From Spironucleus salmonicida (lineage: Eukaryota), in the NCBI RefSeq assembly GCF_000497125.1, contig NC_090598.1, positions 1,674,001 through 1,738,000 on the forward strand: DNA of 64,000 nucleotides, read 5' to 3'. Shown piece after piece: positions 1 through 36,977 of this stretch. Position numbers and translations under genes: made by a program. The notes below the pieces were generated by a model. That model made no database searches. It was not told where the DNA came from and worked only from the letters and a program-made list of their open reading frames with translations. The stretch's first letter is position 1. The number at the start of each line of letters is the position of its first letter.

Positions 1-880
1 GATTTTAAATTCATTTTAAAAGTATATAATTAATATACATAGTAAAGCTATATAATATTAGTATTAGTAGTTTCAATTTCGAAGTTTCACTTTCTATGAA
101 TTTCTAGACTAAATCCAGAGTAAATATATTGTTTTATTTATAATTAGGATTAACATTTTTAAGCATCTAATATTTGTTTTAATGGTTTCGTACTATGAAT
201 AAATTTGTATTAATATACATAATTAAAATTTACTATATAATATCTTTATAATTTACGCTGCATAATACTTCTAGATCTTATAAAACTTCTAGGAGTGGAA
301 TACGGAATAGTAGCTCTATTAATAAACAAGCATAAATTCATAACTTTGTTAATGATAAAATTCAATTAAATTTAAGTGAAATAAATTTCTAGTGGATTAT
401 ATTACATTAGGCTTATAATTAAAAGTTATATTTAACGACATAATTATGTAATAGTTACTACCTATAAATCCAAAGAAAACACATACTCATTACTTATTAT
501 AGCATATTTTCATAAAAATAATTGCTTAAATCTAATAATATTATATAATACGTGTAGTTTCATAAATAATATGCCAAGCAATATATAAATATAATTTTAT
601 AACTATATTTAGTCTTATTAACTTATTAGTTGCTTTATATAATCATAATTTTATATGATTCAGAAATATTTTTATTGTTTATAATAAATTATGTAAAGTA
701 TAAACAATGGTGATTCTGTTTATTATTTATATAGTGTTCTACTATTTTATTTAAATTTATGTACTAAACTTAAAAATAAATTACATCTGATGAGAATGAA
801 ATCTATATGTTATAAAAATACTATTATTTAAGTATAAATTGTTGTATTTATATGCTTACAAATCTTATATAAAAATTTGA

Positions 881-1678
881 TCACTAAAATTAGTTAAGTT
901 AACGCTCTAAACCATAAACCAAGCAACTATAGCTAAGTAATTTTTTTAAAAAAACTTCTAGATCTATAAGCTCATTATCAGACTGACCCTCAAATTCATT
1001 GACTGGAAGGCAATTATCATATTAAAAAGCACAAGAGATATAATTATCATCAATAAGTATAGTATTTTTAAGATCTCTTCCTAGAACTCTAAGATCTTTA
1101 ATATATGCTCCTTTTAAGTGTGTACATGCGGCTCGAGATAATGCTTATAGCGGTTATTTAATAAATTATTATATATACGTGACTCTATTTCTAACATATT
1201 AATTTTCTCCAGCACTCCAAATTATAATCTCAAAGTATTTATCTAGAAATATAAGAAATTCAGGCAAGAAATTGCGGTACGAAGTATATAATCCATCACT
1301 ATATTAGATATTAATACATGAGGTATTTTAAGGCAAGCTAGTTGAATATAAAATTGTTTTATCTAGATCTAATACAATAGTTGGATGCTTCATTAATTAT
1401 GGCGAAAGTAATGGCGTAATTCTATGGATTTATTTAATTTTAATGAACTTATTCGTAAATAGTGCTCTGTATTTTAAGATTGTTTCTTATTGTTATGATT
1501 TAGTTGGCTTTTAAATCTCTAAATAGCTATATACCATTTTATAATATTTATCCTTATTTTTAATATTCATTATTTATTTAAATCTATCTTATTGAAGTAT
1601 AGTATTTGAATTGTCTGATGGGGATTCATTATCCCTAAATAATATTAGTTCCTTGAACCTTAATTATTTTTTATTCAT
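881..1678 (-). CDS. SCP/FCP1-like (NIF/HAD family) CTD small phosphatase-like protein
   Basis: Code-6 translation read through fully: HPTIVLDLDKTILYS, YRNFLPEFL..YFEIIIWSAG, LSRAACTHLKGAYIKDLRVLGRDLKNTILIDDN. Ends TAG TGA. Confidence 0.9.
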
Positions 1679-1732
1679 TTTATATAAGTATATTAATATA
1701 TATAATTAATAATCTATCTACATTCTAAATCA

Positions 1733-4700
1733 ATGTAGCTTACAGAAATTGCCACAATTCCGCCCGGGGCATAACTATGGTCTCCGTCAGTCATGACAAC
1801 GACTTAAAAATTTTTTATTTATGCATCAACTCATTCAATTTATATTTACTAGAGATCTCCTATTATTATTTTCGTTCGGGCTATTTCTTTGAATAATGCT
1901 ATTATTTGTGCTATGACTGCAAATGAAAAACATATTGTTGCTGCTGGAAATGATAAAAAAGTTTATTTTTATGATATTTAAACTTTTGAACCTATCAGAG
2001 AGGTACTTTTAGCTAGGTCAGATCCTCCAATTTCTATTTAATTCCACCATCATATTTAAGACACTGTATTACTTATTTATTAAGGATATCCATATTCAGG
2101 AATTGATGGGGAAATGAGATCTATTAACGTTGTTTCAGGTCAGTCGATTACTTTAATAAATAATCTTGATAAACCAACATAGATGATTTGTTCACCACAC
2201 AGAGCAGAGGTTTCAATTTCTTTTGAAGATGGATAAATTAAATAGTTTGGTCTTTCAAAGGAGGGGAATATTGTATATGAAAGAGTTTTATTAAAGTCTG
2301 ATTTGTAAATAATTGACTAATAAAAAGTATCACAATCTATAAGTAACGATTAGACTCCATCATCAAAATAAATAATTGATATTGTTAACGATTTTAGAAA
2401 AGCTTTAAGAGAAGAAAATTATATTATAGCATGTACTGGTATATCTTACGACCCAAAAAGTTCTGATTATTTTTTAGCCTGTTGGTCCTTTGGAATACAT
2501 GTTTTATTTAGTTCCTTAACAGGATAAGCATTATAAATGTATTAACCTCAGACTACCGGAATTACTTCAATTAATTATTCATAAACCATATCAGGTAGAT
2601 TTTATACAACAGATGGCACAACAGGTGTTTATAGAGAATGGAATGTTTCATAAAATAGATAAATTAATGAGTATCGAGTTTCAGGAACAATATTATTTAG
2701 GACTCATGTAGGTGGATATTAAAATGCACATGGGTTTTCCGATGCTTTACATTTTGTTGATTAAGAGGGACGAGTAACAGTTATAGAACCTCATAATTAA
2801 AAAATTCTATATGAAACAAAATAGAATCATTCTGAAGCGGTTCTTAGTATAGACATAGATCCACTAGATAGTTAAATATTTTGCACATCTAGTTATGATG
2901 GCACAACTAGATAATGGTCGCTAGAAAATTTTAACTACAAAGGTGATATTGGGCGATAGTAATCTATTGTTTGTACATCAGTTACATATAAAAATTCTTC
3001 GATAACATAAAAAATTGTATAAGATAAGAGAAAATTATTTTAGTTTAGTAAAATGGAATCTGGAATTCAATCAATTTACATAGGAAATGTCATTGTATCG
3101 GCGTACAAAAACGGTTTAATAGTGGCATTTGATAAAATAACAGGACGACCAATTATTAATATATTTACCCCAGATACTCAATACAAATCTACTTTATAAG
3201 ATGGAATTGTTGATTTTATTACAGATTAAGAAGTAAGTTTAGTTTAGTAGAAAAAATTTATTTAATATTTTAAAATAAAATGTATGGCTTATGCAGATAG
3301 TTATTTATATACAGGATGGCGTGATTCATCGATCAGAATTATGAAAATTTAAATATTGGAATCAGATAAGCATGGTATTATTATTACATCAAATTTTGTA
3401 GCATCTATTAGTATAGCAAAATTATTACGGGTAGCTATTGATGCCAATCTATAAATTACTCATCTGCAAGCAGTTGATAATTTATTATATGTTTATACAT
3501 CAAAGTCGATGTTTTTAGTATTTGATATAAGTCAGTTTAAAGATTAATGCTCTAATCTGAAATCTATGAATGATAAAGAGGAAAGCCAGTTAATAAAACA
3601 AACATATGCAACTTTTAGTAAATAAAAATATTTTATAGGAAATATGAGCTCAAAATTTGACGAGGGTCAAATTATTTCACATTCTAAATCTATTTACGAT
3701 GTATCGTTCTCTGATAGGTAATTTAATTAATGTTTAGTGGTAGAACCTTCTAAATTGGAGTTGCAGTTTATGGAAACTTATGACTAATCTAAGCCTGATA
3801 AAATTATTCATTTGGTAGATGATCAAGGTTATTATACAACATTGGTTTAATTAGGTAAGTCTGTATAGGATATTATATTTAAAATTGCCTCTGTCTATTA
3901 AGAAAAGTTAAAATCTTAGTAGTCATAATTTAGATAACAGTTTGGCTTAACTTGTGTTAAAAAAATAAATGATTTAAATGTAGTAATAGGTGGATCAGAT
4001 GGAGTATTGTCTATTATTAATTGGTCTCAAAGGTAGGATTAGAAAATGGTGGCATTTTTAAAGAGTACTAAATCAGATATCACAACGTGCCATGTAACAT
4101 AGAATAATATATTAATAGGATGTTTTGATGGTTCAATAAAAATTATTAATTACCATATGGCAGGAATCGATTCGTAAGTGTATTTAAATACAGTATAAAG
4201 TGTATTATTAGAAAAAAGAGATTACCTATAGTAAGAGTTAATTTCTTGTAAATAATATTTTGGAGATATTTATTAAATTGACAACTTGATAGATATTTTA
4301 CAAAATAAAATGAATATATGTGCTCCTTTTAGTCCATTGTCATCAAAATAGCTTTATTCTAGAGGTAAGCTAGTACTGTTTACACTATTATATTAGTTTT
4401 GTCAACAATGCGGCATTAAACTAGAAGACCATTTGGATATTTTGGCATTAGAAGTTACAGAAATTATTGCCTCGAATACCACAGAAAAGTATTCATTATA
4501 TAATGAATGTCAAAAATTATTGAAAAATAAATACAACATTTATAACTAAGGATAACTTGATTCGTCTTAGCCTATTAAATAACGATTATAGTCTATTTTT
4601 AAATATATTCTTTAATTAAGCTTATCTTTTTAATGTCATACTCTCCTTTCAGATCTTTTTTGGGAATTGGGTTTATATTAAGAATCACTATTAACTGCAT

Positions 4701-19313: not shown

Positions 19314-22300
19314 TCACTTACCAACAGCTCCCAAAAATTATTTTAACGCCGTCATTGAACCACCAATTGTGACAATACATGCATCGGGTAGAATTTCTAA
19401 CATACTTTCAATTATAGTACTAAGAACCAGGCGCATATTTGACATTGAGTTTACAAAGTCATACGCCATTAGGTCACACTAAATAACGTCTACATAACAT
19501 TTTAGTATTTTTGAAAATTTCAAATATTTTTCACCATTTTATAATGCAGCATGTCTAAGCAGTATACGGATTATTTATTTAGAAACGGTTTAAAGTTGTT
19601 AAAATACAAAAACTGAATTTTTAATTAATTTTTTCAACTCAGTTGATACAGTTTTATCTAAGATATCGCTAGAAACTTGAGAAAATCTCCCCAATTAGAG
19701 AGAAATAAACATTTCTTGTAAGTTTTATATACTCATTCTTCTTATAGATAAGTCAGTAGATACATCATACTCTAACCCTGCAGAAAAAGCAAAGAACATT
19801 TCCGAAATTGTTTTCGCAGACCATTAAGGAATAAGGATTTGACAATACTATCTAAAGCCTCCTTCCCCTATTAAATTACCTGTTTTTTATTCTTTTGCTA
19901 GGTAGTTAAAAACTAAACCTGCTTGTTAAAATGCTGTTCTTCTAAATCCACCATAAGCAAATAGAATTAATTATATAAATTATTGTAGAGATATTTAAGT
20001 TGGGACAACAAACTCATCATTTTATTATTTTGAATATAAAATAGAGAAAACATTTTAAACAAATGCATACTATCTTTTTGGCTCCCAATTTTATAATATT
20101 GTTGCCGTCACTGATGGTATTGCCTAAGTAGCCAAAAATTCAGAATTTGCATCTGTTTTTCCTTAGAATCCTAAGATTCGCCTGATTTCAAGATATAACA
20201 AATAATAGTCATTTTCTAAATCTTCGAAAAACATTCTTGTATACAGATATATTTCTTCATTTTCGTATTAATAATACGCTAGATTTACGATGAAGTTAAA
20301 AGCAAGATTAGATACGATTGCTTTAACACCATATTTCTATTATGCCCAAAACATGAAAAATGCAGCAGGAGATTCAGCTTCTCTTCTCAATAATTAACCA
20401 GGGATTATCTGAAACTAAACTTTTCTAGCATCATCAGAAGATGTTACAAAAGTAGATGGCATATCCTACATTGATACTGTGAAAATTTAACTTGAATATG
20501 ATAAACGCTCAACTATAAGAGTTCTTACTAATTTTAATGTCCAATGCAATGATTTGATAGTAACGTTTTGCACAGGAAGTTTTATATAATCATATACTCC
20601 CAATTATACAAATGATATTTTAGTCAATGTAAGATCTTCTAACAGCTTAAATATTAGCGGTACATACCCCTTAGTATTGCATGTAATAGAGGATAATTTT
20701 ATATATTTAATTGTATTATTAACTTATGGCAATAGTGTAACTAGCTTCCTTATCTCTGGTGATGGGTTGTATGACTATTTAAAAGTAGCAACATCAATAT
20801 TATATTTAAAGAGTTTAAAAGTATTTTTTTAAAGTTATATCATATTCAAAAATTAATTTTTCCCAACATCTTTAGTATCAGATTTATCAAATGTAGTGTA
20901 GAATTTTTCTAAATCTTAATAATCTTAAAACAAAACTGGGTAGAATAAAGTAAACTCTGATACATCTCCATCTGCTGGACAATATTTAAGATATACTTTA
21001 TCCACTGGATGTTAAATAACGAAATTGTCATTTAATGGTGGAGATATAATCGATTTTTGAGAATATCTAATGTATTCACCATAACGTGGATGAATTTATA
21101 TAACCGAATGCAATACTTACGTTGCAGTTTCAGAATCATCTTTATTTTGTTATACCTTGACAAGTTATAAAAAATCTTAATATGAAGGTACTGATTTATC
21201 AATAGCTTCCAATCTTTTCATAGCCTCATTTTAATCTAAAATTAGTTTATTTTAATTAATTTAATACTTTGAATTTATTGATGTTTAATCTAATTTATGA
21301 GTTGCAAATTATCCTTGACGTAAAAGAACATGCTTGTTTCTCTATTATGCTGATGGAATCATTTTAGATGAGCCTAGTGTTTAAGGTTATTTCACATCAT
21401 CTAAACCTTTTTAAAAATGAGACTCATGCTATTGGATCAGTGATATTGTTTTCTAATTCTGAGACTATAATTATGATTCTTTTTTAAGCTAACTCAATTT
21501 GGATGTTTATTGCTCTATTTACTTTACTTTGTCGCGAATTCCATCTTCAATAGTAGTATTTTCTACATACTTAGGTTAAACTACTTATAAGCTTTAAATT
21601 TAAGGATTTAAAACTGGACCTTTATTATTATTAAAATTAATTTTCATTGCTAAAAGATCAGAGTTAATTCCAGATTCCTAAATAATTTGATGTGCTCCTA
21701 ATTATGTAATAGCTTATTCCTCGTCATCCATGCCTACTAAACCTGTAACTTTGAATGAATTAACATCCCCTGCGAACATTTCTTTAATATCTTTTGCGAT
21801 AGCAGTATCATTAATAAAATCTTCAAGTGCTATATCTGTTTGCATACAATAATCTATTCCAATTGCTGATTCTATTGTCTAAATTTCTTATGTTTATTTT
21901 GGCGGCACAAAGTTCTTTACTTTGTCTCCTAACAATTATTCTTCATTCATATAGTTATCTAAATCATTTATTTAATTTTTTAATATGATAGCTTCAGACT
22001 GCAAAGGGAATAATTCATCATCTAATGCATTTTAGTTAATTGCAATATCATTAATATTTTACTATTTTTTTTGGCGCTATTCAATTGCCTAAATATTTGG
22101 TTTAAACAAAGTTTCCTATTTTGTTGCTTTTAATTTTTTAACTAAAGCTTATGTATGTTTGATAAATTGATCATTGCTAAGCTTAGTTAGTTTAACAAAA
22201 TCTACTCCAAAAGCTTACAAAATTTCATTTGCTCTAATTATAAAAATATTTTATTATTAAATTTATAGCGACGTGACTTCTTCCAATGGGTTCAGTAGGT

Positions 22301-25085
22301 TTAACTCTGTGTTGCCTGACAATGACACATTTTCAGGAATTTCAAATTAAATTTTTTCTAATTATAATTCTTTCTTTTCTTCTTAGGGATTTTTATTAAC
22401 AGTCTTTACTGTATCTGCTTATGTTAAGAAGTCTAATAGAATCTATAAAAGCTCTTTCGGTGCTTTTAACTTCTAATTTCCCTAGTCTATTTGTTAAATT
22501 TGATTCCATTCCTTAATATAATCTTAATAAAATATGTTAAAATTTCTTTTATTAATAGTATTATCAATATGTTTGAATAAGACATTGTTAAGTTAAGTCT
22601 TGTATTAGGATCTTACATCTGCTGGTAATGTTTTAACTATGTTATTAATTTATTATAAGATATTTGACTATTAAACTGATAACATTTAAATAGTGTCTTT
22701 TTACTACTATTCATTTCTATTAGTAATCAGTGAATCAACATTAGATGGTTTTGGCAATACAAGTGAAGGTTTATCTGTATTCTACTAGGTATCTTGTATT
22801 TGACTAATAATATTTCTACTAGAGATATGAGATTAAGTATAGGTGGAGTCCTTATTACTAGATTATATGCTTTCATCATCTTAGGAATGTATATTAATTT
22901 TGTTTGACTAACTAACTATTTTTAATTTTCCAATTAAACTTTATGCTTTTGAGAGATTATCAGATTATTTACCAAGATTTGCTAAATCATCTTTTTAATA
23001 ATCTACTACACTATCTAAAGTTTCTTTAGTTTTCATTTCCAGGTTTGTAACATATACCTATCCATATTTTAACCCTGACAATTTTTCAGCGGATAATAGC
23101 TTTTTGTAACCTAGCAATTAAGTTTTATTCGGTAAAGCTTCAGTTGAACTCTTATGTTTTTTATTATTGTTATACGTTTCTTCCGATGTAGATTCTCCAT
23201 AGACAATAGAAGAATTATTAGTAGATTATTTTTTATAGACAGAGCCCTATCTCTCCTTTAATAATGATTTTCTCGTATTTTTATTAGTGTAATCTCTTTA
23301 ACTAAGTTACTTTTTCGGTTTATCTTTTATATCTTTGGAAATAAATGTACTCTTATCGGCATCTATTAATGCATTCCCTTCACTAAGCCCTTATGAAAAT
23401 TCATTAATTTCTCTAACATCGCTTTCTGTAACTTATGAGTTCTCATTGTTCGCATTATCACTATTTTTGTTACTGTTTTCAACAAAGCTAGCCTAAGATC
23501 GGTTTAAGTATTCCATATTTGCTACCATTTATTTTTATTGTAGATTCATATTGTCACGTTTTAGTTTTTCAATTTACGATAAAAGAAATTATGTCTAGTC
23601 TTATTATTTGGCAAGAATTTCTTCTTGAAGAATATTAACATTTAGTGTAGCTTATTAATTTATAATGGACTTTTACTCAATTGGTATTAACTATTTTCTT
23701 TTTCCACCGTTAGCTTTTTTAATTACAGTAATATTTTCTGCCATTGTTCCATCAATCTAAACAGCAACTGTTCTGTATTATGTAACATTTTCAAAAGTAG
23801 GAGAAAAATGTTCTAAAACTTATTCACAAAAATCGGAATTCTGAAGAGAAGCTACAACATTATATGCACAATGCAAACTAGTTCTATCAATTCCTAATTC
23901 CTTTACTAATAAATCTTGTGATGATAATTACGATATTTCAATAAGTACTTATAAAGCTTATTTAATAGTATCGCTAGCCGTTTCTGGAACATCTACTAAT
24001 TTGAACTTATTACAGCCATTGTTAATCTCCTCTTATAAACGTTAAATATGTTCATTCTAGGTATTTATCAATGCTTATTATATAGAGTACTAATCGAATA
24101 ATTTCTTATATGATAACTAGTGTTCTTCGATGACATTTTCTAAATCTATAACTTTACGCTCAGCTCGTTAAATTTTATCATGGCTTTACTCTGCAATACT
24201 TCTAAATTTTGTGACTGACACTTATAATCGTCTAGTTCTATTATTAAGATCATTTTTTTCTTATTATTAATGACTAATTTCTGCAATAAGTTAAATATTT
24301 TATTTTTACACAGCTTCATTACTATTTGCTAGGTTTTCTTTTTCAAACATTAGTTTAAAATTAAGTTGTTTTAATTTTTCTGAAAAAATAATTTATTTTT
24401 CTAATTTCGAATTATATTCATTGAGATCTTTATTAAGCCTACAAATTTCTATTGTTAAATTATCAGAATCAAGCTGAAGTTAAAAGCATCTTGCATCTAA
24501 GTTTTTGGTAGCGTATTCTAAACTTTATTGCTTTTTTGATTTCTCTTTAATTTTATAAATAAAAAAATTCCTAATCTATTTCAAGGTATCTGATAGCTTT
24601 GGTGTATCTTTACGTAAAACATTAATAATATCATTAAATCCCATAACATACATTTCTACCTCGTCGATATTTTCTTTATTCTCAAATATAGCATTCATTT
24701 TTATTGGAGTAATTTCATTAATTTTTTCATTACTATCTAATACGCCGTCTTTACCAAAAACAAAATCATCTTCATCTTTCATTAATACTTTCAAATGTTC
24801 CATTCTTTCAATTTCCTCAGTTTCTATAAAAAAATCTTGGTTTTCTTTTTATTCCTTAATCTATGATTATTATATATCTTTAATAATACATTACGCTCCG
24901 TCACTCCATCCTTTTATCTATGTTCTTTTTGCGAACTCGTTCGTATTGGCGAAGTCTTAAGATTTTATGTTTGTTTAAAAATCTAGAGGATCAAGTTTAT
25001 GTGGAATATCAATAGGTCTTGAAAAATCTGCTAAAGACGACTTAGCATTAAATCTAAGTAGTGGAGAAAGTGATCTAGGTGGCAT
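19314..25085 (-). CDS. Very large coiled-coil protein (~1923 aa), C-terminal region weakly TSNAXIP1-like
   Basis: ATG at 25085 and TGA at 19314 are in frame with track ORF 24576-24803. Contains FFMFWAQQKYGVKAIV and ENEEIYLYTRMF. Confidence 0.55.
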
Positions 25086-25136
25086 TTATATTTGAATAAT
25101 ACAAATATTATTATATTATATAACAACTTATTAGTC

Positions 25137-27201: not shown

Positions 27202-28326
27202 TCAAATCAAAGATTAAAGCTCAGCTGGAAGGAGTTCAATAGTGGTCTAGTAAGTGTCTTGGATGATTTATAAGTTAGCAGTGTCTTATTCGGATACTAA
27301 ATTAATTGCAACTCCTTTACGACCAAAACGACCAGAACGGCCAATTCTATGAAGATATTACTCAGGTCTTTTAGGTATATCATAGTTAATAACAAGAGAA
27401 ACATTTTAAACGTCAATACCACGAGCTATAACATTAGTGGCAATCAGGACACGTTATGTACCAAGACGGAAAGATTTCATCACAGCATTACGTTCAGCCT
27501 AATCCATTTTACCATGAATCATGTCGCATGCAAAATTTTCATGTTTAAGAGCCTCGTACACTTCAACAACAACCGACTAGTTATTAGAAAATATTATACA
27601 TTATTAAACAGTCATGACTTTGAAAATATCGAAGAGAGTAGATGTTTTCCAGCTATTATCAAGAGCAACTTAATATTGCCTTATACCATCTAAAGTAAGT
27701 TCGTCTTCTTTAACTAAAATTTAAATTGCATCTGGCATGAATGAACTAGTAAGGTCTAAAATCTATTGTGGCATAGTTGCGGAAACCATTACTAGTTGCG
27801 TGCCTTATGAAACTGCTTTGAAAACACTTATAATTTGGTCTTAAAAATCAGTTTTTAACATTTCATCAGCTTCATCGACAATAACCATTTTCACATTTTC
27901 GCAATGCAAATTACCTTAGGTAATAAGTTAATTAAGTCTACCTGGAGTACCAACAACCACATGAGGTACATTACGGTTTAGAGACTCTATATCTTGCTAA
28001 ACGGTGGAACCGCCAATAATGCATTAAACTACTATGTTCATCTTAGAGCCAATAGAGGTTAAAACATCAGCAGACTATTGAGCTAATTCACGTGTTGGGG
28101 CAAGAATTATTGCCTATGTTTTTTTAAGATTTTCATCAATACGTTAAAGACAAGCGATAGAGAAAGTGGCAGTTTTTCCAGTCCCAGATTATGCCTAACA
28201 AATAACATCCTTCCCTGTAGTGATTGGTACTATAGCTTAATCCTAGATAGCAGAAGGTTTTTCAAAGCCATGACCAAATATACCATCAAGTAATTTCGGT
28301 TTTAAATTCATCGCATCAAAGGACAT
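27202..28326 (-). CDS. eIF4A: DEAD-box RNA helicase eIF4A
   Basis: GFEKPSAIQ, AQSGTGKT, PTRELAQQ, DEAD, SAT and HRIGRSGRFGRKG motifs. Conserved Gln positions are encoded by TAA/TAG. Confidence 0.97.
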
Positions 28327-33179: not shown

Positions 33180-35066
33180 TCAGCAACATGATTTTTTTAT
33201 TAGACTATTTTAAATATTAATATTGGTAGGTATTATAACTTCTTCAAACTCTATAAATTCATAGATTTAATTAATATTCTCTCCATTTTTTGCAGAAACA
33301 AATAGAACCTTCTAAATATGATTATCATTTGCGAATGTTCTTATTTAATTCTCAATTTTTGGACTTTTACAATCGCATTTCAGACCAACCAAGATTATTT
33401 CTTTATTGAAAATAACTATTTAATTATACCAATATTAAAGATCAAGAAGACTAAATTCACCTTCGATCGAGCTAATACATAGTAAAATGATGTTAGATTT
33501 CTTAAATGCGCTATTACAAATAGATAAATACTATTCTTGACCTGCAGTATCATAAAAAACTAATTGGTAATTTTTTTTATCAGACAAAAACTTGAGTGTA
33601 ACAATATCCAAACCAACTGTTGCAGCAGACTATACAAAAATATTATTCTAGAGTTTGCCGAGATAAGAAGATTTTCCAGAAGACATAGGACCACATATTG
33701 CAAGTGAGAGTTTAAAATCTGATGTCGAGTAAATTTAATCTGAAATCTATGTTCTATCTAATTATAATTTTCTAATGTTGTTTTCTGGATATATTTATGA
33801 GCCAAATTTTAAAGTCAATTTACTTTGTAGTATTTATTATAAATTTGAATTATCTTAGTCTACAATATATTATTTTTACTAAATCATGGTAGAATTTATA
33901 TTAAATATTGATAAAGCTTATCTTGCTTCCTCGACTACTCTTGCTTCCTCGACTACTCTTGCTTCCTCGATTAATCTTGCTTCCTCGACTACTCTTGCTT
34001 CCTCGATTAATCTTGCTTCCTCGACTACTCTTGCTTCCTCGATTAATCTTGCTTCCTCGACTACTCTTGCTTCCTCGACTACTCTTGCTTCCTCGACTAC
34101 TCTTGCTTCCTCGACTACTCTTGCTTCCTCGACTACTCTTGCTTCCTCGATTAATCTTGCTTCCTCGACTACTCTTGCTTCCTCGATTAATCTTGCTTCC
34201 TCGACTACTCTTGCTTCCTCGACTACTCTTGCTTCCTCGACTACTCTTGCTTCCTCGACTACTCTTGCTTCCTCGACTACTCTTGCTTCCTCGACTACTC
34301 TTGCTTCCTCGACTACTCTTGCTTCCTCGACTACTCTTGCTTCCTCGACTACTCTTGCTTCCTCGACTACTCTTGCTTCCTCGATTAATCTTGCTTCCTC
34401 GATTAATCTTGCTTCCTCGACTACTCTTGCTTCCTCGACTACTCTTGCTTCCTTAAATAACTAATCTTATTCATCTAAACTAATATTATCATATTTATCT
34501 GTAGATACTTGTGTTTAAATAGTAGTACTCTGATCATTAGTACTAGAGTCATTAGATATATTTTCTAATTTAGATTCTACTAACTAACTCCATTCATTAG
34601 TACTTATAGCATAAGAAAATAAACCATTTTTATTCTAAATTTCTTTTATCTTTTAGCTCAATTCATTTTACACTTAATCAAATATGGGATACATATTGAT
34701 TTTAACCAATGATATTATACTTTATGCCACATATTCAACTGTTTTTAAATAAGGCGGTTCCTTAAATAAATCCGATGCATCATAAGCCACTTTAGCTGAT
34801 TGACAAAAATTTTTATGATTTTATAAATAATAGAATAATTATTCTTTCATGTTTATATTAATGTTTTATTTCAATATTTCGTTGGATAAATTACAAAGCT
34901 CTTATCCAGTTTTAATTGAATCAATAAATGACGTATATTACTTTTACGTAATATAATTGATAAGCTCTAGTGCTATTTATTAAGCGTCTAAAATATCCTC
35001 TAAATAAGCTTTGACTCTTTTTAATGTTGTACTAGATAAAGGACTTAAACAGTTTGGAAATTGCAT
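33180..35066 (-). CDS. Large Rab GTPase fusion: N-terminal CH domain + (EEARVV/EEARLI)n rod + C-terminal Rab domain ending CC (628 aa)
   Basis: One continuous code-6 frame. Rab motifs GPMSSGKS, ATVG, DTAGQE, GLKCD, FVSAK and C-terminal KKSCC. CH-like segment ALELINYIT..FIDSIKTGQELCNLSN..FYYLQNHKNF. Confidence 0.8.
33922..34453. repeat. 18-bp coding tandem repeat, 29 full units plus a partial unit, two variants
   Basis: CTTGCTTCCTCGACTACT x22 and CTTGCTTCCTCGATTAAT x7. On the minus strand these encode RVVEEA and RLIEEA. Confidence 0.97.
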
Positions 35067-35174
35067 GATTTTAATTTAGTAAAATGATAATAAATATATC
35101 AAAATATAATATATCAAAAAATTATAACTCATAATTAAATAGTAAAGTATATTTTTAGAAATAATATAATTAAA

Positions 35175-36074
35175 TCAGTCTGATTCACTATCGTCTGAAG
35201 ATGAGTCATCCATGCAAAAACCACCGACCATTTCCTCTTCCTCTGTTTTTTCTTTTTCATTGGATTATACAGCATTAGTAACAGGAGAACTGACAGATGA
35301 TGATCCGGAACCTATCTAACTAAACATTTTATCACAAGAAGTAGTTTTCATAAAAGAAACAAATAAATCTACCCACATTTCAAATCCTGTAATTCCAGTA
35401 GCAATCATTATTTTATTAATATTTTCAGAATTAATATCCTTACCTGCTGCCTCTAATGCTATACAAGCATATGCAATAGCAGTTCCAGAATTTTCTGATT
35501 GAGCTGGAGGACCATAATTAATTTTTCTAGGTTCAGCTGGTGTAGTAGTGCTCTCAATTCTTTTCTTAACTGGTCCTGGAATCTCCATTACCGAGTTATC
35601 ATCTTCTAAAATTTAAGAAAGTAATATGTTGTTTTCTTCATGTCTTTAAGTAAGTTTGTCTATATTCGCAGATCTAACCATATTTTCAAGTTCCTTAGCT
35701 TCCATAACCATATCAATAATTCCATGATCTACTTCATGAACATGAGCAACTACACCTCTAGCTAACTCACTAACTTCACTTTAAGAACCATTAATGAAGT
35801 CACCTCCACTATAGAAGCAATTAATAGCTTTTGAGAAAAGAGAGTGATTTTCAATATGAATGAATAAATTATCTTTAGAGTTAATTTTCATGTGCATATT
35901 ATTTAATTTATTGAAAAATTCTAAAAATACAGTGCCTGTCTTCATATCTTCAACAAAATCTTTATAACTGCTATCTAAAACATGGTTAATCACCCTTAAG
36001 GCTAGATCAGAATCCATTTTCAGTTATTCTAATTTCCACATTCTTCTTCTCATGGTTGGTGAAGTAACTGACAT
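35175..36074 (-). CDS. CH domain fused to a 60S acidic ribosomal stalk protein P1-like domain (299 aa)
   Basis: Track ORFs 35781-36017 and 35316-35588 join through TAA=Gln with no TGA between them. CH: ALRVINHVL..DFVEDMKTGTVFLEFFN..FIHIENHSLF. P1: AIAYACIAL..INSENINKIMIATG..WVDLF..IGSG..EEEEMVGGF. Confidence 0.8.
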
Positions 36075-36977
36075 TCGTAAGAAATAGGAATGGTTAATTG
36101 TTTAATGTGATTAACCTAATTGTATATAATAATTATAATTATATTTATTTTTATTATTTAAATTTTACTTATTATTTAAATTATTTAATCAATTGAATTA
36201 TTTTAACTAATAATATATTCTCAACAATTAGGAGTAATTCAATGTTAGAACAAATTAATCAATATTAATACTTATGTAATATAAGAATATAAAATATTAA
36301 TTAAATATACTCATACGCACTATAATTAAATATTATAAAATTGATAATACTAACTTTTTAAATAATTATTGTACTACTAAGATATTTTGTTTATACTTTT
36401 ACATTTTATAAATTTAAACTATAGCATAACAAATTTAACTGTAAATATCTGGTGTTATTGATGATTACATATAGATCTAACTAACAAAATTTTAAATAAT
36501 GAAGATCCAACCTAATTTAAGTTATTTTATACAGTTAAATTTATGTTTTATAGCGTATATTCCTTATTAGTTAAAAAGAATTATCATGACTTAAAAAGAG
36601 TATTAATTAATCGGATTTTATTATTGATAAGTAATACAACAAGTATTTAATATATATTTAATAGTTTTCCCAAACCAATAAATAGGTAATTTTGATAATA
36701 TGAGTCGCAGTGTGTTAATATTTATCATTAATTGTTGTATATGATAACGATAAAAATTAAACTTAGGTTTCAATAAAATAATTTTCTAATTTATCTCATT
36801 ACAATTTCACAAATTAGCAAAAAAGATGGATTGGAATATAATTAAAAAATAAGCTATATAATTTTCCAATGAGTCCAAATACTTACTTAAAAATTATGTT
36901 ATATGAATATGTATTAAATCTTGATAGATTTAACTTTTAAAAATAATCTGAAAATTAAATCTAAGCAAAAGATTAAA

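Follow-up and report, generated by a model that had tools for sequence, protein, structure and literature searches.

A predicted large Rab of Spironucleus salmonicida with a calponin-type CH head and a minisatellite-encoded spacer

We analysed a stretch of 64,000 nucleotides (nt) of Spironucleus salmonicida DNA (assembly GCF_000497125.1, contig NC_090598.1, positions 1,674,001 to 1,738,000; hereafter the window), in which the minus strand from position 35066 to 33180 encodes a large Rab-like protein, P0003, with a calponin-type CH domain at its N terminus, a spacer built largely of a hexapeptide repeat, and a double-cysteine C terminus. As the best explanation, held with a confidence somewhat short of even, we propose that the locus is a genuine, transcribed, intron-free gene coding for one chain of 628 residues, that this chain belongs to a small CH-Rab family, of which it is a divergent representative and in which spacer length varies freely, and that it would act as a prenylated Rab with a CH module of its own, set off by a long spacer, and thereby link a membrane to the cytoskeleton. 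Almost all Rabs are bare switches of ~200 residues that work via separate effectors, and the few exceptions known, Rab44, Rab45 and Rab46, have EF-hands. The CH-then-Rab layout was found undescribed in print and, judging from sequence comparison, recurs in a few distant protists; our literature search found no paper describing a CH-Rab fusion or the related proteins discussed below, with subscription journals and supplementary files outside its scope, so that an earlier description is possible. A preceding sequence-only reading of the same DNA had called the locus a large Rab with a CH head and had offered two roles for it, a convergent motor adaptor or a membrane-to-cytoskeleton tether. The multidomain Rab proves real, and homologues with the same domain order exist; the tether is the role that we judge most plausible, with prenylation, membrane insertion and the partner of the CH domain all taken as putative.

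Under NCBI translation table 6, in which TAA and TAG encode glutamine, the minus strand from 35066 to 33180 is a single frame of 628 codons closed by a TGA stop at 33180-33182, and the earlier claim of one frame running from ATG 35066 through the head and the repeat into the Rab holds with this code. With the standard code there is no long minus-strand frame around 33180-35066. Table 6 is the right code here because both flanking genes (P0002 upstream and the RanBP1-domain protein P0077 downstream), which lie on the same contig, agree letter for letter with public proteins when so translated. No TGA interrupts the 628 codons of the P0003 frame; the two alternative frames of this strand contain 6 and 18, and ~11 would be expected by chance at the rate of 0.0173 TGA per trinucleotide found across the window. 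Glutamine is written with 37 TAA/TAG and 7 CAA/CAG codons, and the window as a whole is AT-rich, the fraction of guanine plus cytosine per 2 kb being 0.198-0.346 and mostly ~0.25, lower than the published values of 33.3% for Hexamita inflata and 33.5% for Spironucleus salmonicida (PMC11787283). At its 5' side the table 6 frame extends further, from 35132 to 33180 (650 amino acids), and a start at the in-frame ATG 35132 would prepend 22 hydrophobic residues; no transcript contig extends to this ATG, but the want of cover over 35073-35161 carries no weight as evidence. The contigs of two of the four runs described below reach 35066 or 35072, and ATG 35066 is the best start, as had been proposed. 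A further in-frame ATG at 33887 sits in the second linker. The gaps on either side of the gene measure 108 nt, from the stop of the upstream gene to ATG 35066, and 65 nt, from the P0003 stop to the next ATG.

None of the six ATG-to-stop forms of the gene, nor the 650-residue form, is present in a public collection of 15 billion proteins, and a profile search of 1.84 billion representatives returned no public protein for the P0003 head itself, whereas P0002 came back at 4e-70. The gene seems to be missing from the public annotation or to be modelled differently there, perhaps because of the repeat, and thus appears as an annotation gap between two neighbours that are both in the public protein set.

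Four public sequencing runs of one study (X1-X4) contain the locus, their RNA nature being a guess from the run listing. The analysis of their contigs covered the head side, over 34400-36200, beside the repeat. Loose ends of poly-T, two of which follow adaptor letters, lie at 35162 and 35170. These positions are 5-13 nt beyond the TGA of the upstream gene, on the side where one would expect the poly(A) tail of a minus-strand messenger RNA (mRNA); from these ends, with and without adaptor, we infer that the runs are complementary DNA. Contigs of the head were obtained in all four runs (34424-35072 in X1, 34424-35066 in X2, 34424-35051 in X3 and 34424-34781 in X4), those of two runs covering the start codon at 35064-35066, and no joint of the kind that an intron would leave was reported anywhere in this stretch. 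At the other end of the repeat, a contig whose letters outside the repeat, at least 255 of them, are the Rab-side flank (33891-33920 and beyond) enters the array in all four runs. In X4 this flank contig has a depth of 21.4 and the head contig one of 21.6, which is a weak hint only.

The P0003 head alone scores 19.7 bits against Pfam CH (PF00307; E 0.001), under the cut-off of 26, although a five-sequence profile of the head family reaches the CH structures of calponin-1 (3.1e-11), calponin alpha (2.7e-10) and calponin-2 (1.4e-9) in the Protein Data Bank (PDB). All seven matches of this profile at E<=1e-3 are CH domains, from calponin, IQGAP/Rng2, transgelin-2 and Vav-3 (2.4e-4). The nearest relative of the head is that of the upstream gene product P0002 (BLASTP E 1e-12, 27% identity over 91 residues); by tblastn the similarity spans residues 10-132 of P0003, and these are the only two copies of the head within the window. 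When the two sequences were combined in a profile and searched against the 1.84 billion representatives, 12 proteins were found at E<=1e-3, namely P0002 itself, the protein P0005 described below and ten others. Pfam CH was passed by all ten of the proteins from this search that were scanned, P0014 having been left out of the scan.

A single-sequence AlphaFold2 (AF2) model of the P0003 head was unusable, with a predicted local distance difference test (pLDDT) score of 43.4. For the P0005 head, AF2 was given an 11-row alignment that excluded P0003, and the model reached a pLDDT of 82.6. The best Foldseek match of the latter in the PDB is the CH domain of calponin-2 (E 1.7e-3, template modelling score 0.61), with no match at E<=1e-3. 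By their titles the Foldseek rows listed for this model are CH entries, comprising calponins, ARHGEF6/7, EHBP1 (6zsh, at rank 5), IQGAP1, parvins, utrophin and EB1, besides rows with uninformative titles (8iah chains and 1vka). The single (type 3) CH domains of calponin, transgelin and IQGAP/Rng2 are the best profile and fold matches of the family head, and the CH core K/D-G-x-x-L-C-x-L-x-N is kept in P0003 as KTGQELCNLSN; unlike these domains, the P0003 head has an N-terminal extension and a loop deletion, and it sits on a Rab in place of calponin repeats or a GAP-related domain. On these profile and fold matches the head is a calponin/IQGAP-like CH domain, which gives substance to the CH-like head that had been noticed earlier.

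The GTPase domain of P0003 matches Pfam Ras at 74.4 bits (E 9.8e-21). A phmmer search of the PDB gave 665 sequences at E<=0.01, and the best 60 of these are all of the Rab/Ypt/Sec4 type, headed by Rab3D (1.1e-13) and followed by Rab3A/C/B, Rab12, Rab1, RASEF and Rab11. The C terminus, ...IKKSCC, fits the CC/CXC geranylgeranylation motif of Rabs and predicts prenylation, the terminal CC having already been noted from the sequence. A scan of Joint Genome Institute (JGI) metagenomes with residues 385-628 returned 10 loci, all of them ordinary distant Rabs at 27-32% identity and no close relative. By sequence kinship and by its lipidation motif, the domain is a Rab, albeit an aberrant one without a recognisable subfamily.

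The CH and GTPase domains are held apart by ~325 residues, 180 of which are the repeat. Tandem Repeats Finder delimits the array at 33921-34453, with a period of 18, 29.6 copies, 95% matches and a score of 968. At the DNA level it consists of 21 identical GAGGAAGCAAGAGTAGTC units (EEARVV), 7 identical units ending in ...TTAATC (EEARLI, two bases different) and 2 edge variants, and this near-identity marks the array as a very recently expanded coding minisatellite, in which any copy number leaves the head and the Rab in frame, since each unit of 18 nt adds whole codons. With <=2 mismatches allowed, 29 occurrences of the unit were found in the window, none of them outside 33933-34454, against no occurrence in 100 shuffles. 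The 180 residues are composed of E (59), V (44), A (31), R (30), L (7), I (7), K (1) and Q (1), so that only half are charged and 28% are beta-branched, and each hexad provides E-R pairs at i+3 and i+4. Modelled as an alpha-helix, the repeat would be 27 nm long and has a hydrophobic moment of 0.007 at 100 degrees and of 0.006 at 102.9 degrees; its V/L/I residues form three stripes 120 degrees apart, 18 residues being exactly five turns. Since there is neither an amphipathic face nor heptad periodicity, a canonical dimeric coiled coil is not indicated. The Pfam family LED_rpt gave 35.9 bits on the array against a cut-off of 59 and was taken as a low-complexity match.

Further support for the domain combination comes from proteins that share it. 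P0005, an unnamed protein of 385 amino acids found in UniParc only, contains a CH domain (36.2 bits) followed by a Ras domain (94.1 bits) and ends in GCC; it is collinear with P0003, with 27% identity in the head (E 1e-8) and 30% in the GTPase (E 4e-9). Of 5660 candidates in a search with P0005, 63 proteins scored E<=1e-3, including three Hexamita inflata proteins named 'Rab11' (P0015-P0017, of 480, 547 and 552 amino acids, with PF00307 plus PF00071). P0005 and the Hexamita proteins have in common with P0003 an N-terminal CH domain, a low-complexity spacer, a Rab-like GTPase and a KK-x-CC(K) end, whereas their identity to P0003 is only 24-30%, their spacers are Q/E-rich, ~70-235 residues long and of other sequence, without the EEARVV array, and their heads include a 7-residue loop segment that is missing from both P0003 and P0002. 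In a tree of 27 CH domains, where comparison was limited to those 21 calponin-like domains that the head profile had retrieved, the heads of P0003, P0002, P0005 and P0015-P0017 lie on one side of a branch that separates them from the other 21 with support 100/99, and these six heads have a common N-terminal extension L-S/K-x-x-T-[LI]-x-R. For the GTPase, the log-likelihood exceeds that of a free quick search by 5.65 when P0003 is held together with P0005, P0018, P0019 and the Hexamita proteins, and this tree has a p value of 0.67 in the approximately unbiased test (p-AU).

Because the spacers of the homologues are ~70-235 residues long and differ in sequence, the rod is not conserved, and what this comparison indicates as the conserved feature of the CH-Rab group is the presence of a spacer and not a rod. 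Comparison with these relatives also provides the strongest case against misassembly, because the head and the GTPase each find kin in proteins that carry both. Word-based searches with the P0003 head and with its GTPase part among proteins of 345-1099 amino acids scored nothing; both missed P0005, so little weight is attached to them. As an observation on the relatives themselves, Met replaces the catalytic Gln in the P0005/Hexamita GTPase group (DTAGME), and the Hexamita proteins additionally have NKSE for NKxD and SAV for SAK, where P0003 has LKCD and SAK and P0005 has NKCD as its G4. This pattern points to a subfamily with impaired GTPase activity.

In the reading that we prefer, the CC terminus would be doubly geranylgeranylated and would insert the Rab domain into the membrane of an organelle or vesicle, while the CH head, up to tens of nanometres away on its spacer, would bind the cytoskeleton, most likely F-actin, as do the CH domains of IQGAP and EHBP1. 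By analogy, P0003 would be a one-chain version of a Rab8-family GTPase together with a CH-bearing effector such as EHBP1, MICAL or MICAL-L.

Several observations weigh against a Rab tether of this kind, and a number of them concern the switch. The G4 motif is LKCD in place of NKxD, so that the earlier description of G1-G5 as recognisable stands apart from this single departure, with G1, the switch-I Thr, G3 and G5 all present. Changes at the Asn of NKxD weaken nucleotide binding. The dominant Ypt1 mutant N121I carries its change at this Asn, according to the part of the source that was available (PMC2120555). In a GTPase tree of 47 rows P0003 has by far the longest end branch (3.95 against a median of 0.19); its position within the P0005/Hexamita clade is not rejected but is tentative given this very long branch, and its switch II is DTAGQE where P0005, P0018, P0019 and the Hexamita proteins have DTAGME. 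Following the RabF1-F5 motif definitions, the segments VGLDI, QLVFY, QYLSIC, AFKKS and LLCISS, read by eye on Rab3 alignments, each keep 1-2 identical residues. Because the GTPase branch is so extremely long, the switch of P0003 may be impaired. Taken to its end, this argument makes the Rab-like domain a switch-dead element that no longer cycles or holds nucleotide tightly and serves only as a constitutive prenylated membrane anchor or pseudo-GTPase scaffold for the CH domain, and the altered G4 Asn, the branch length, the weak RabF motifs and the want of a close relative in the JGI metagenomes would all fit. We nevertheless regard it as unlikely, given that the P-loop, the switch-I Thr, SAK and DTAGQE with its catalytic Gln are retained along with the G4 residues K and D, which would be unexpected without a constraint for nucleotide binding, and that the frame is intact over 628 codons. 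The assembly and the transcript raise a different doubt. No read or contig spans the 540-nt repeat, and it is across this gap that we infer one continuous mRNA; contig pieces consisting of repeat only are 750-4250 deep, compared with 2.5-21.6 for the unique head and flank contigs, and the depth of repeat words is several-fold above a rough estimate for ~15-30 copies per transcript. The 18-nt unit may also exist at other, better-covered loci. Together with the absence of every ATG-to-stop form of the gene from the public protein collection, these depths could be explained by a misassembly across a repeat common to several loci, or by a locus that yields only a Rab of conventional size from ATG 33887. 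We hold either to be highly improbable: the nearest kin of the head and of the GTPase carry both domains in the same order, a layout that a chance mis-join would not recreate, both flanks enter the repeat in contigs of all four runs with the head covered up to its ATG, the array of 30 x 18 nt keeps the frame at any copy number, and both neighbouring genes are exact public proteins on the one contig.

The spacer and the head leave room for other readings as well. The structure prediction of the repeat gave no confident fold, and of the ~175-residue helical repeat rod proposed earlier the length stands, at 180 residues, and the helical rod is not confirmed. The binding partner of the CH head is a guess: not all single CH domains of the calponin type bind actin, those of Vav and PIX serving other contacts. 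The head could instead act as an intramolecular regulator that docks on its own GTPase or spacer, or as a docking site for another protein. Vav-3 CH is among its nearest sequence relatives, and the paralogous head of P0002, which is carried on a ribosomal P1-like domain, suggests a general-purpose interaction module. In profile and fold, however, the head is matched most strongly by the CH domains of calponin, IQGAP/Rng2 and EHBP1, several of which bind actin. Autoinhibitory CH contacts are described in EHBP1 (PMC7442826, available part) and MICAL-L1 (PMC3172267, likewise in part), which would favour a regulatory head, whereas the actin binding of the EHBP1 CH domain in the former source and a spacer of ~325 residues, which argues for reach over a closed conformation, make such a head rather doubtful. 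A convergent activating adaptor for dynein or kinesin, as the sequence-only reading had also considered, would have a Hook-like head and a repeat that forms a dimeric coiled coil. The order of head, rod and Rab resembles that of Rab45 and CRACR2A, both of which act as motor adaptors, and known activating dynein adaptors need a dimeric coiled coil. At E<=1, a Pfam search of P0003 returned neither Hook nor EF-hand nor any other known light-intermediate-chain-binding family. The head is of the calponin type: its profile matches the CH domains of calponin, IQGAP/Rng2, transgelin and Vav, and its 19 PDB matches at E<=1 include no Hook protein. The repeat has neither a heptad signal nor an amphipathic face, and a rod is not conserved among homologues whose spacers vary in both length and sequence. 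The analogy with Hook is therefore abandoned, and a motor adaptor appears barely tenable.

The surroundings of the gene add to this picture (Table 1). The C-terminal domain of P0002 matches Pfam Ribosomal_60s at 28.2 bits, against a cut-off of 28.1, and 60S P1 in the PDB at 2.7e-4, and the gene is covered by contigs of all four runs. As its fusion shows, the predicted CH head is a shuffled module, and a head of cytoskeletal type on a protein resembling the ribosomal stalk is in itself an odd pairing. The poly(A) site of the P0002 gene lies only 5-13 nt after its TGA, and untranslated regions and intergenic gaps are extremely short here. We also observed that this TGA is in the same frame as P0003, 36 codons before ATG 35066 and with no stop in between (35067-35177); given the poly(A) ends at 35162 and 35170, the shared frame is probably due to chance (1 in 3). 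Elsewhere in the window, other long uninterrupted frames encode a 1466-residue WD40 protein, a 1182-residue CFAP65/Cep192-like protein and a 1009-residue phosphodiesterase, and a tRNA scan of the window found none.

Table 1. Positions in the window of the P0003 gene, its domains and motifs, and neighbouring genes (aa, amino acid positions or length)
Feature	Coordinates	Strand	Remarks
Whole coding sequence	33180-35066	minus	table 6 frame, 0 in-frame TGA; contigs cover 34424-35072 without joints
Calponin-type CH domain, aa ~10-125	34692-35039	minus	short N-terminal extension; motif LSSTTLKR at 35016-35039
Linker 1, aa 126-204, S/T/N/Q/E-rich	34455-34691	minus	no family match; only a 13-bit chance-level Pfam hit
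Repeat, aa 205-384, 30 tandem 18-nt units	33915-34454	minus	EEARVV (21), EEARLI (7), KEARVV (1), EEARQA (1)
Linker 2, aa 385-450	33717-33914	minus	contains in-frame ATG 33887
Divergent Rab-like GTPase, aa 451-610	33237-33716	minus	Pfam Ras, PDB matches, motifs
G1, GPMSSGKS	33669-33692	minus	located in sequence
Switch-I Thr (T of AATVGLD)	within 33606-33626	minus	located in sequence
G3, DTAGQE	33534-33551	minus	located in sequence
G4, LKCD, aa 562-565	33372-33383	minus	not [NT]KxD; K and D kept, N replaced by L
G5, SAK	33288-33296	minus	located in sequence
C-terminal tail, aa 611-628, 18 residues, ends KKSCC	33183-33236	minus	CC at 33183-33188, Rab-type double-Cys prenylation motif
P0002, 299 aa, paralogous CH head and ribosomal P1-like C-terminal domain with acidic tail	35175-36074	minus	exact public protein
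RanBP1-domain protein P0077, 156 aa	32647-33114	minus	starts 65 nt after the P0003 stop
eIF4A-like DEAD-box helicase	27205-28320	minus	406.8 bits, E 7.3e-121 against human eIF4A-I
1940-residue uninterrupted frame	19317-25136	minus	no Pfam match

If the proposed architecture is correct, the covalent union of a Rab with a calponin-type CH domain would constitute a second, independent class of large Rabs beside the EF-hand proteins Rab44, Rab45 and Rab46, and the coding minisatellite with its 30 units lends itself to a natural test of the effect of spacer length on a tether. A wider generalisation, which we put forward as speculation with the odds well against it, is that CH-Rabs are an old and overlooked 'self-effector' class of Rabs in phagotrophic protists of distant lineages, uniting a GTP switch with a lipid anchor and a CH domain that binds filaments in one chain, with a freely evolving spacer that is here a minisatellite whose copy number would set the distance between membrane and filament. 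If the EEARVV array is a helix, its three symmetric Val stripes could also allow it to bundle or to cross-link laterally into a coat. Single alpha-helix (ER/K) domains are stable isolated helices with dense E-R/K pairs at i/i+4; in composition, only half of the array is charged and 28% of its residues are beta-branched.

Among known systems, the animal large Rabs have a long N-terminal extension before a C-terminal Rab in common with P0003, and the sequence-only reading had drawn a link to them. In Rab44, Rab45/RASEF and Rab46/CRACR2A this extension consists of EF-hands and a coiled coil, as stated in the available part of the source (PMC12522834). No EF-hand family was found in P0003 by Pfam at E<=1, the repeat has no heptad periodicity, and the GTPase has no special affinity to Rab44/45/46, RASEF matching it at 6e-11, ranked under Rab3, Rab1 and Rab12, and the EF-hand Rab P0028 ranking low at 39.7 bits; the proposed link does not survive this comparison, by which CH-Rab and the animal large Rabs are independent fusions. 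Closer to home among protists, Entamoeba histolytica RabD2 also has a charged low-complexity N-terminal extension, an EK-rich one that self-associates according to the same partly available source (PMC12522834); unlike P0003, it has 69 extra residues and no CH domain.

The nearest functional parallel would be that of the Rab8 family with EHBP1, MICAL and MICAL-L1, in which a membrane Rab is coupled to an actin-contacting CH domain (PMC7442826, in part). There, the Rab and the CH domain reside on two proteins that meet through a bMERB domain, and binding of Rab8 frees the autoinhibited CH domain, that of EHBP1 being an actin binder released in this manner in the portion of the source available (PMC7442826). 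P0003 has both modules in one chain, and no bMERB, C2, LIM or monooxygenase domain was found in it by Pfam. The CH-Rab would accordingly provide, naturally and in a single chain, the link between membrane and actin that Rab8 and EHBP1/MICAL form as separate partners.

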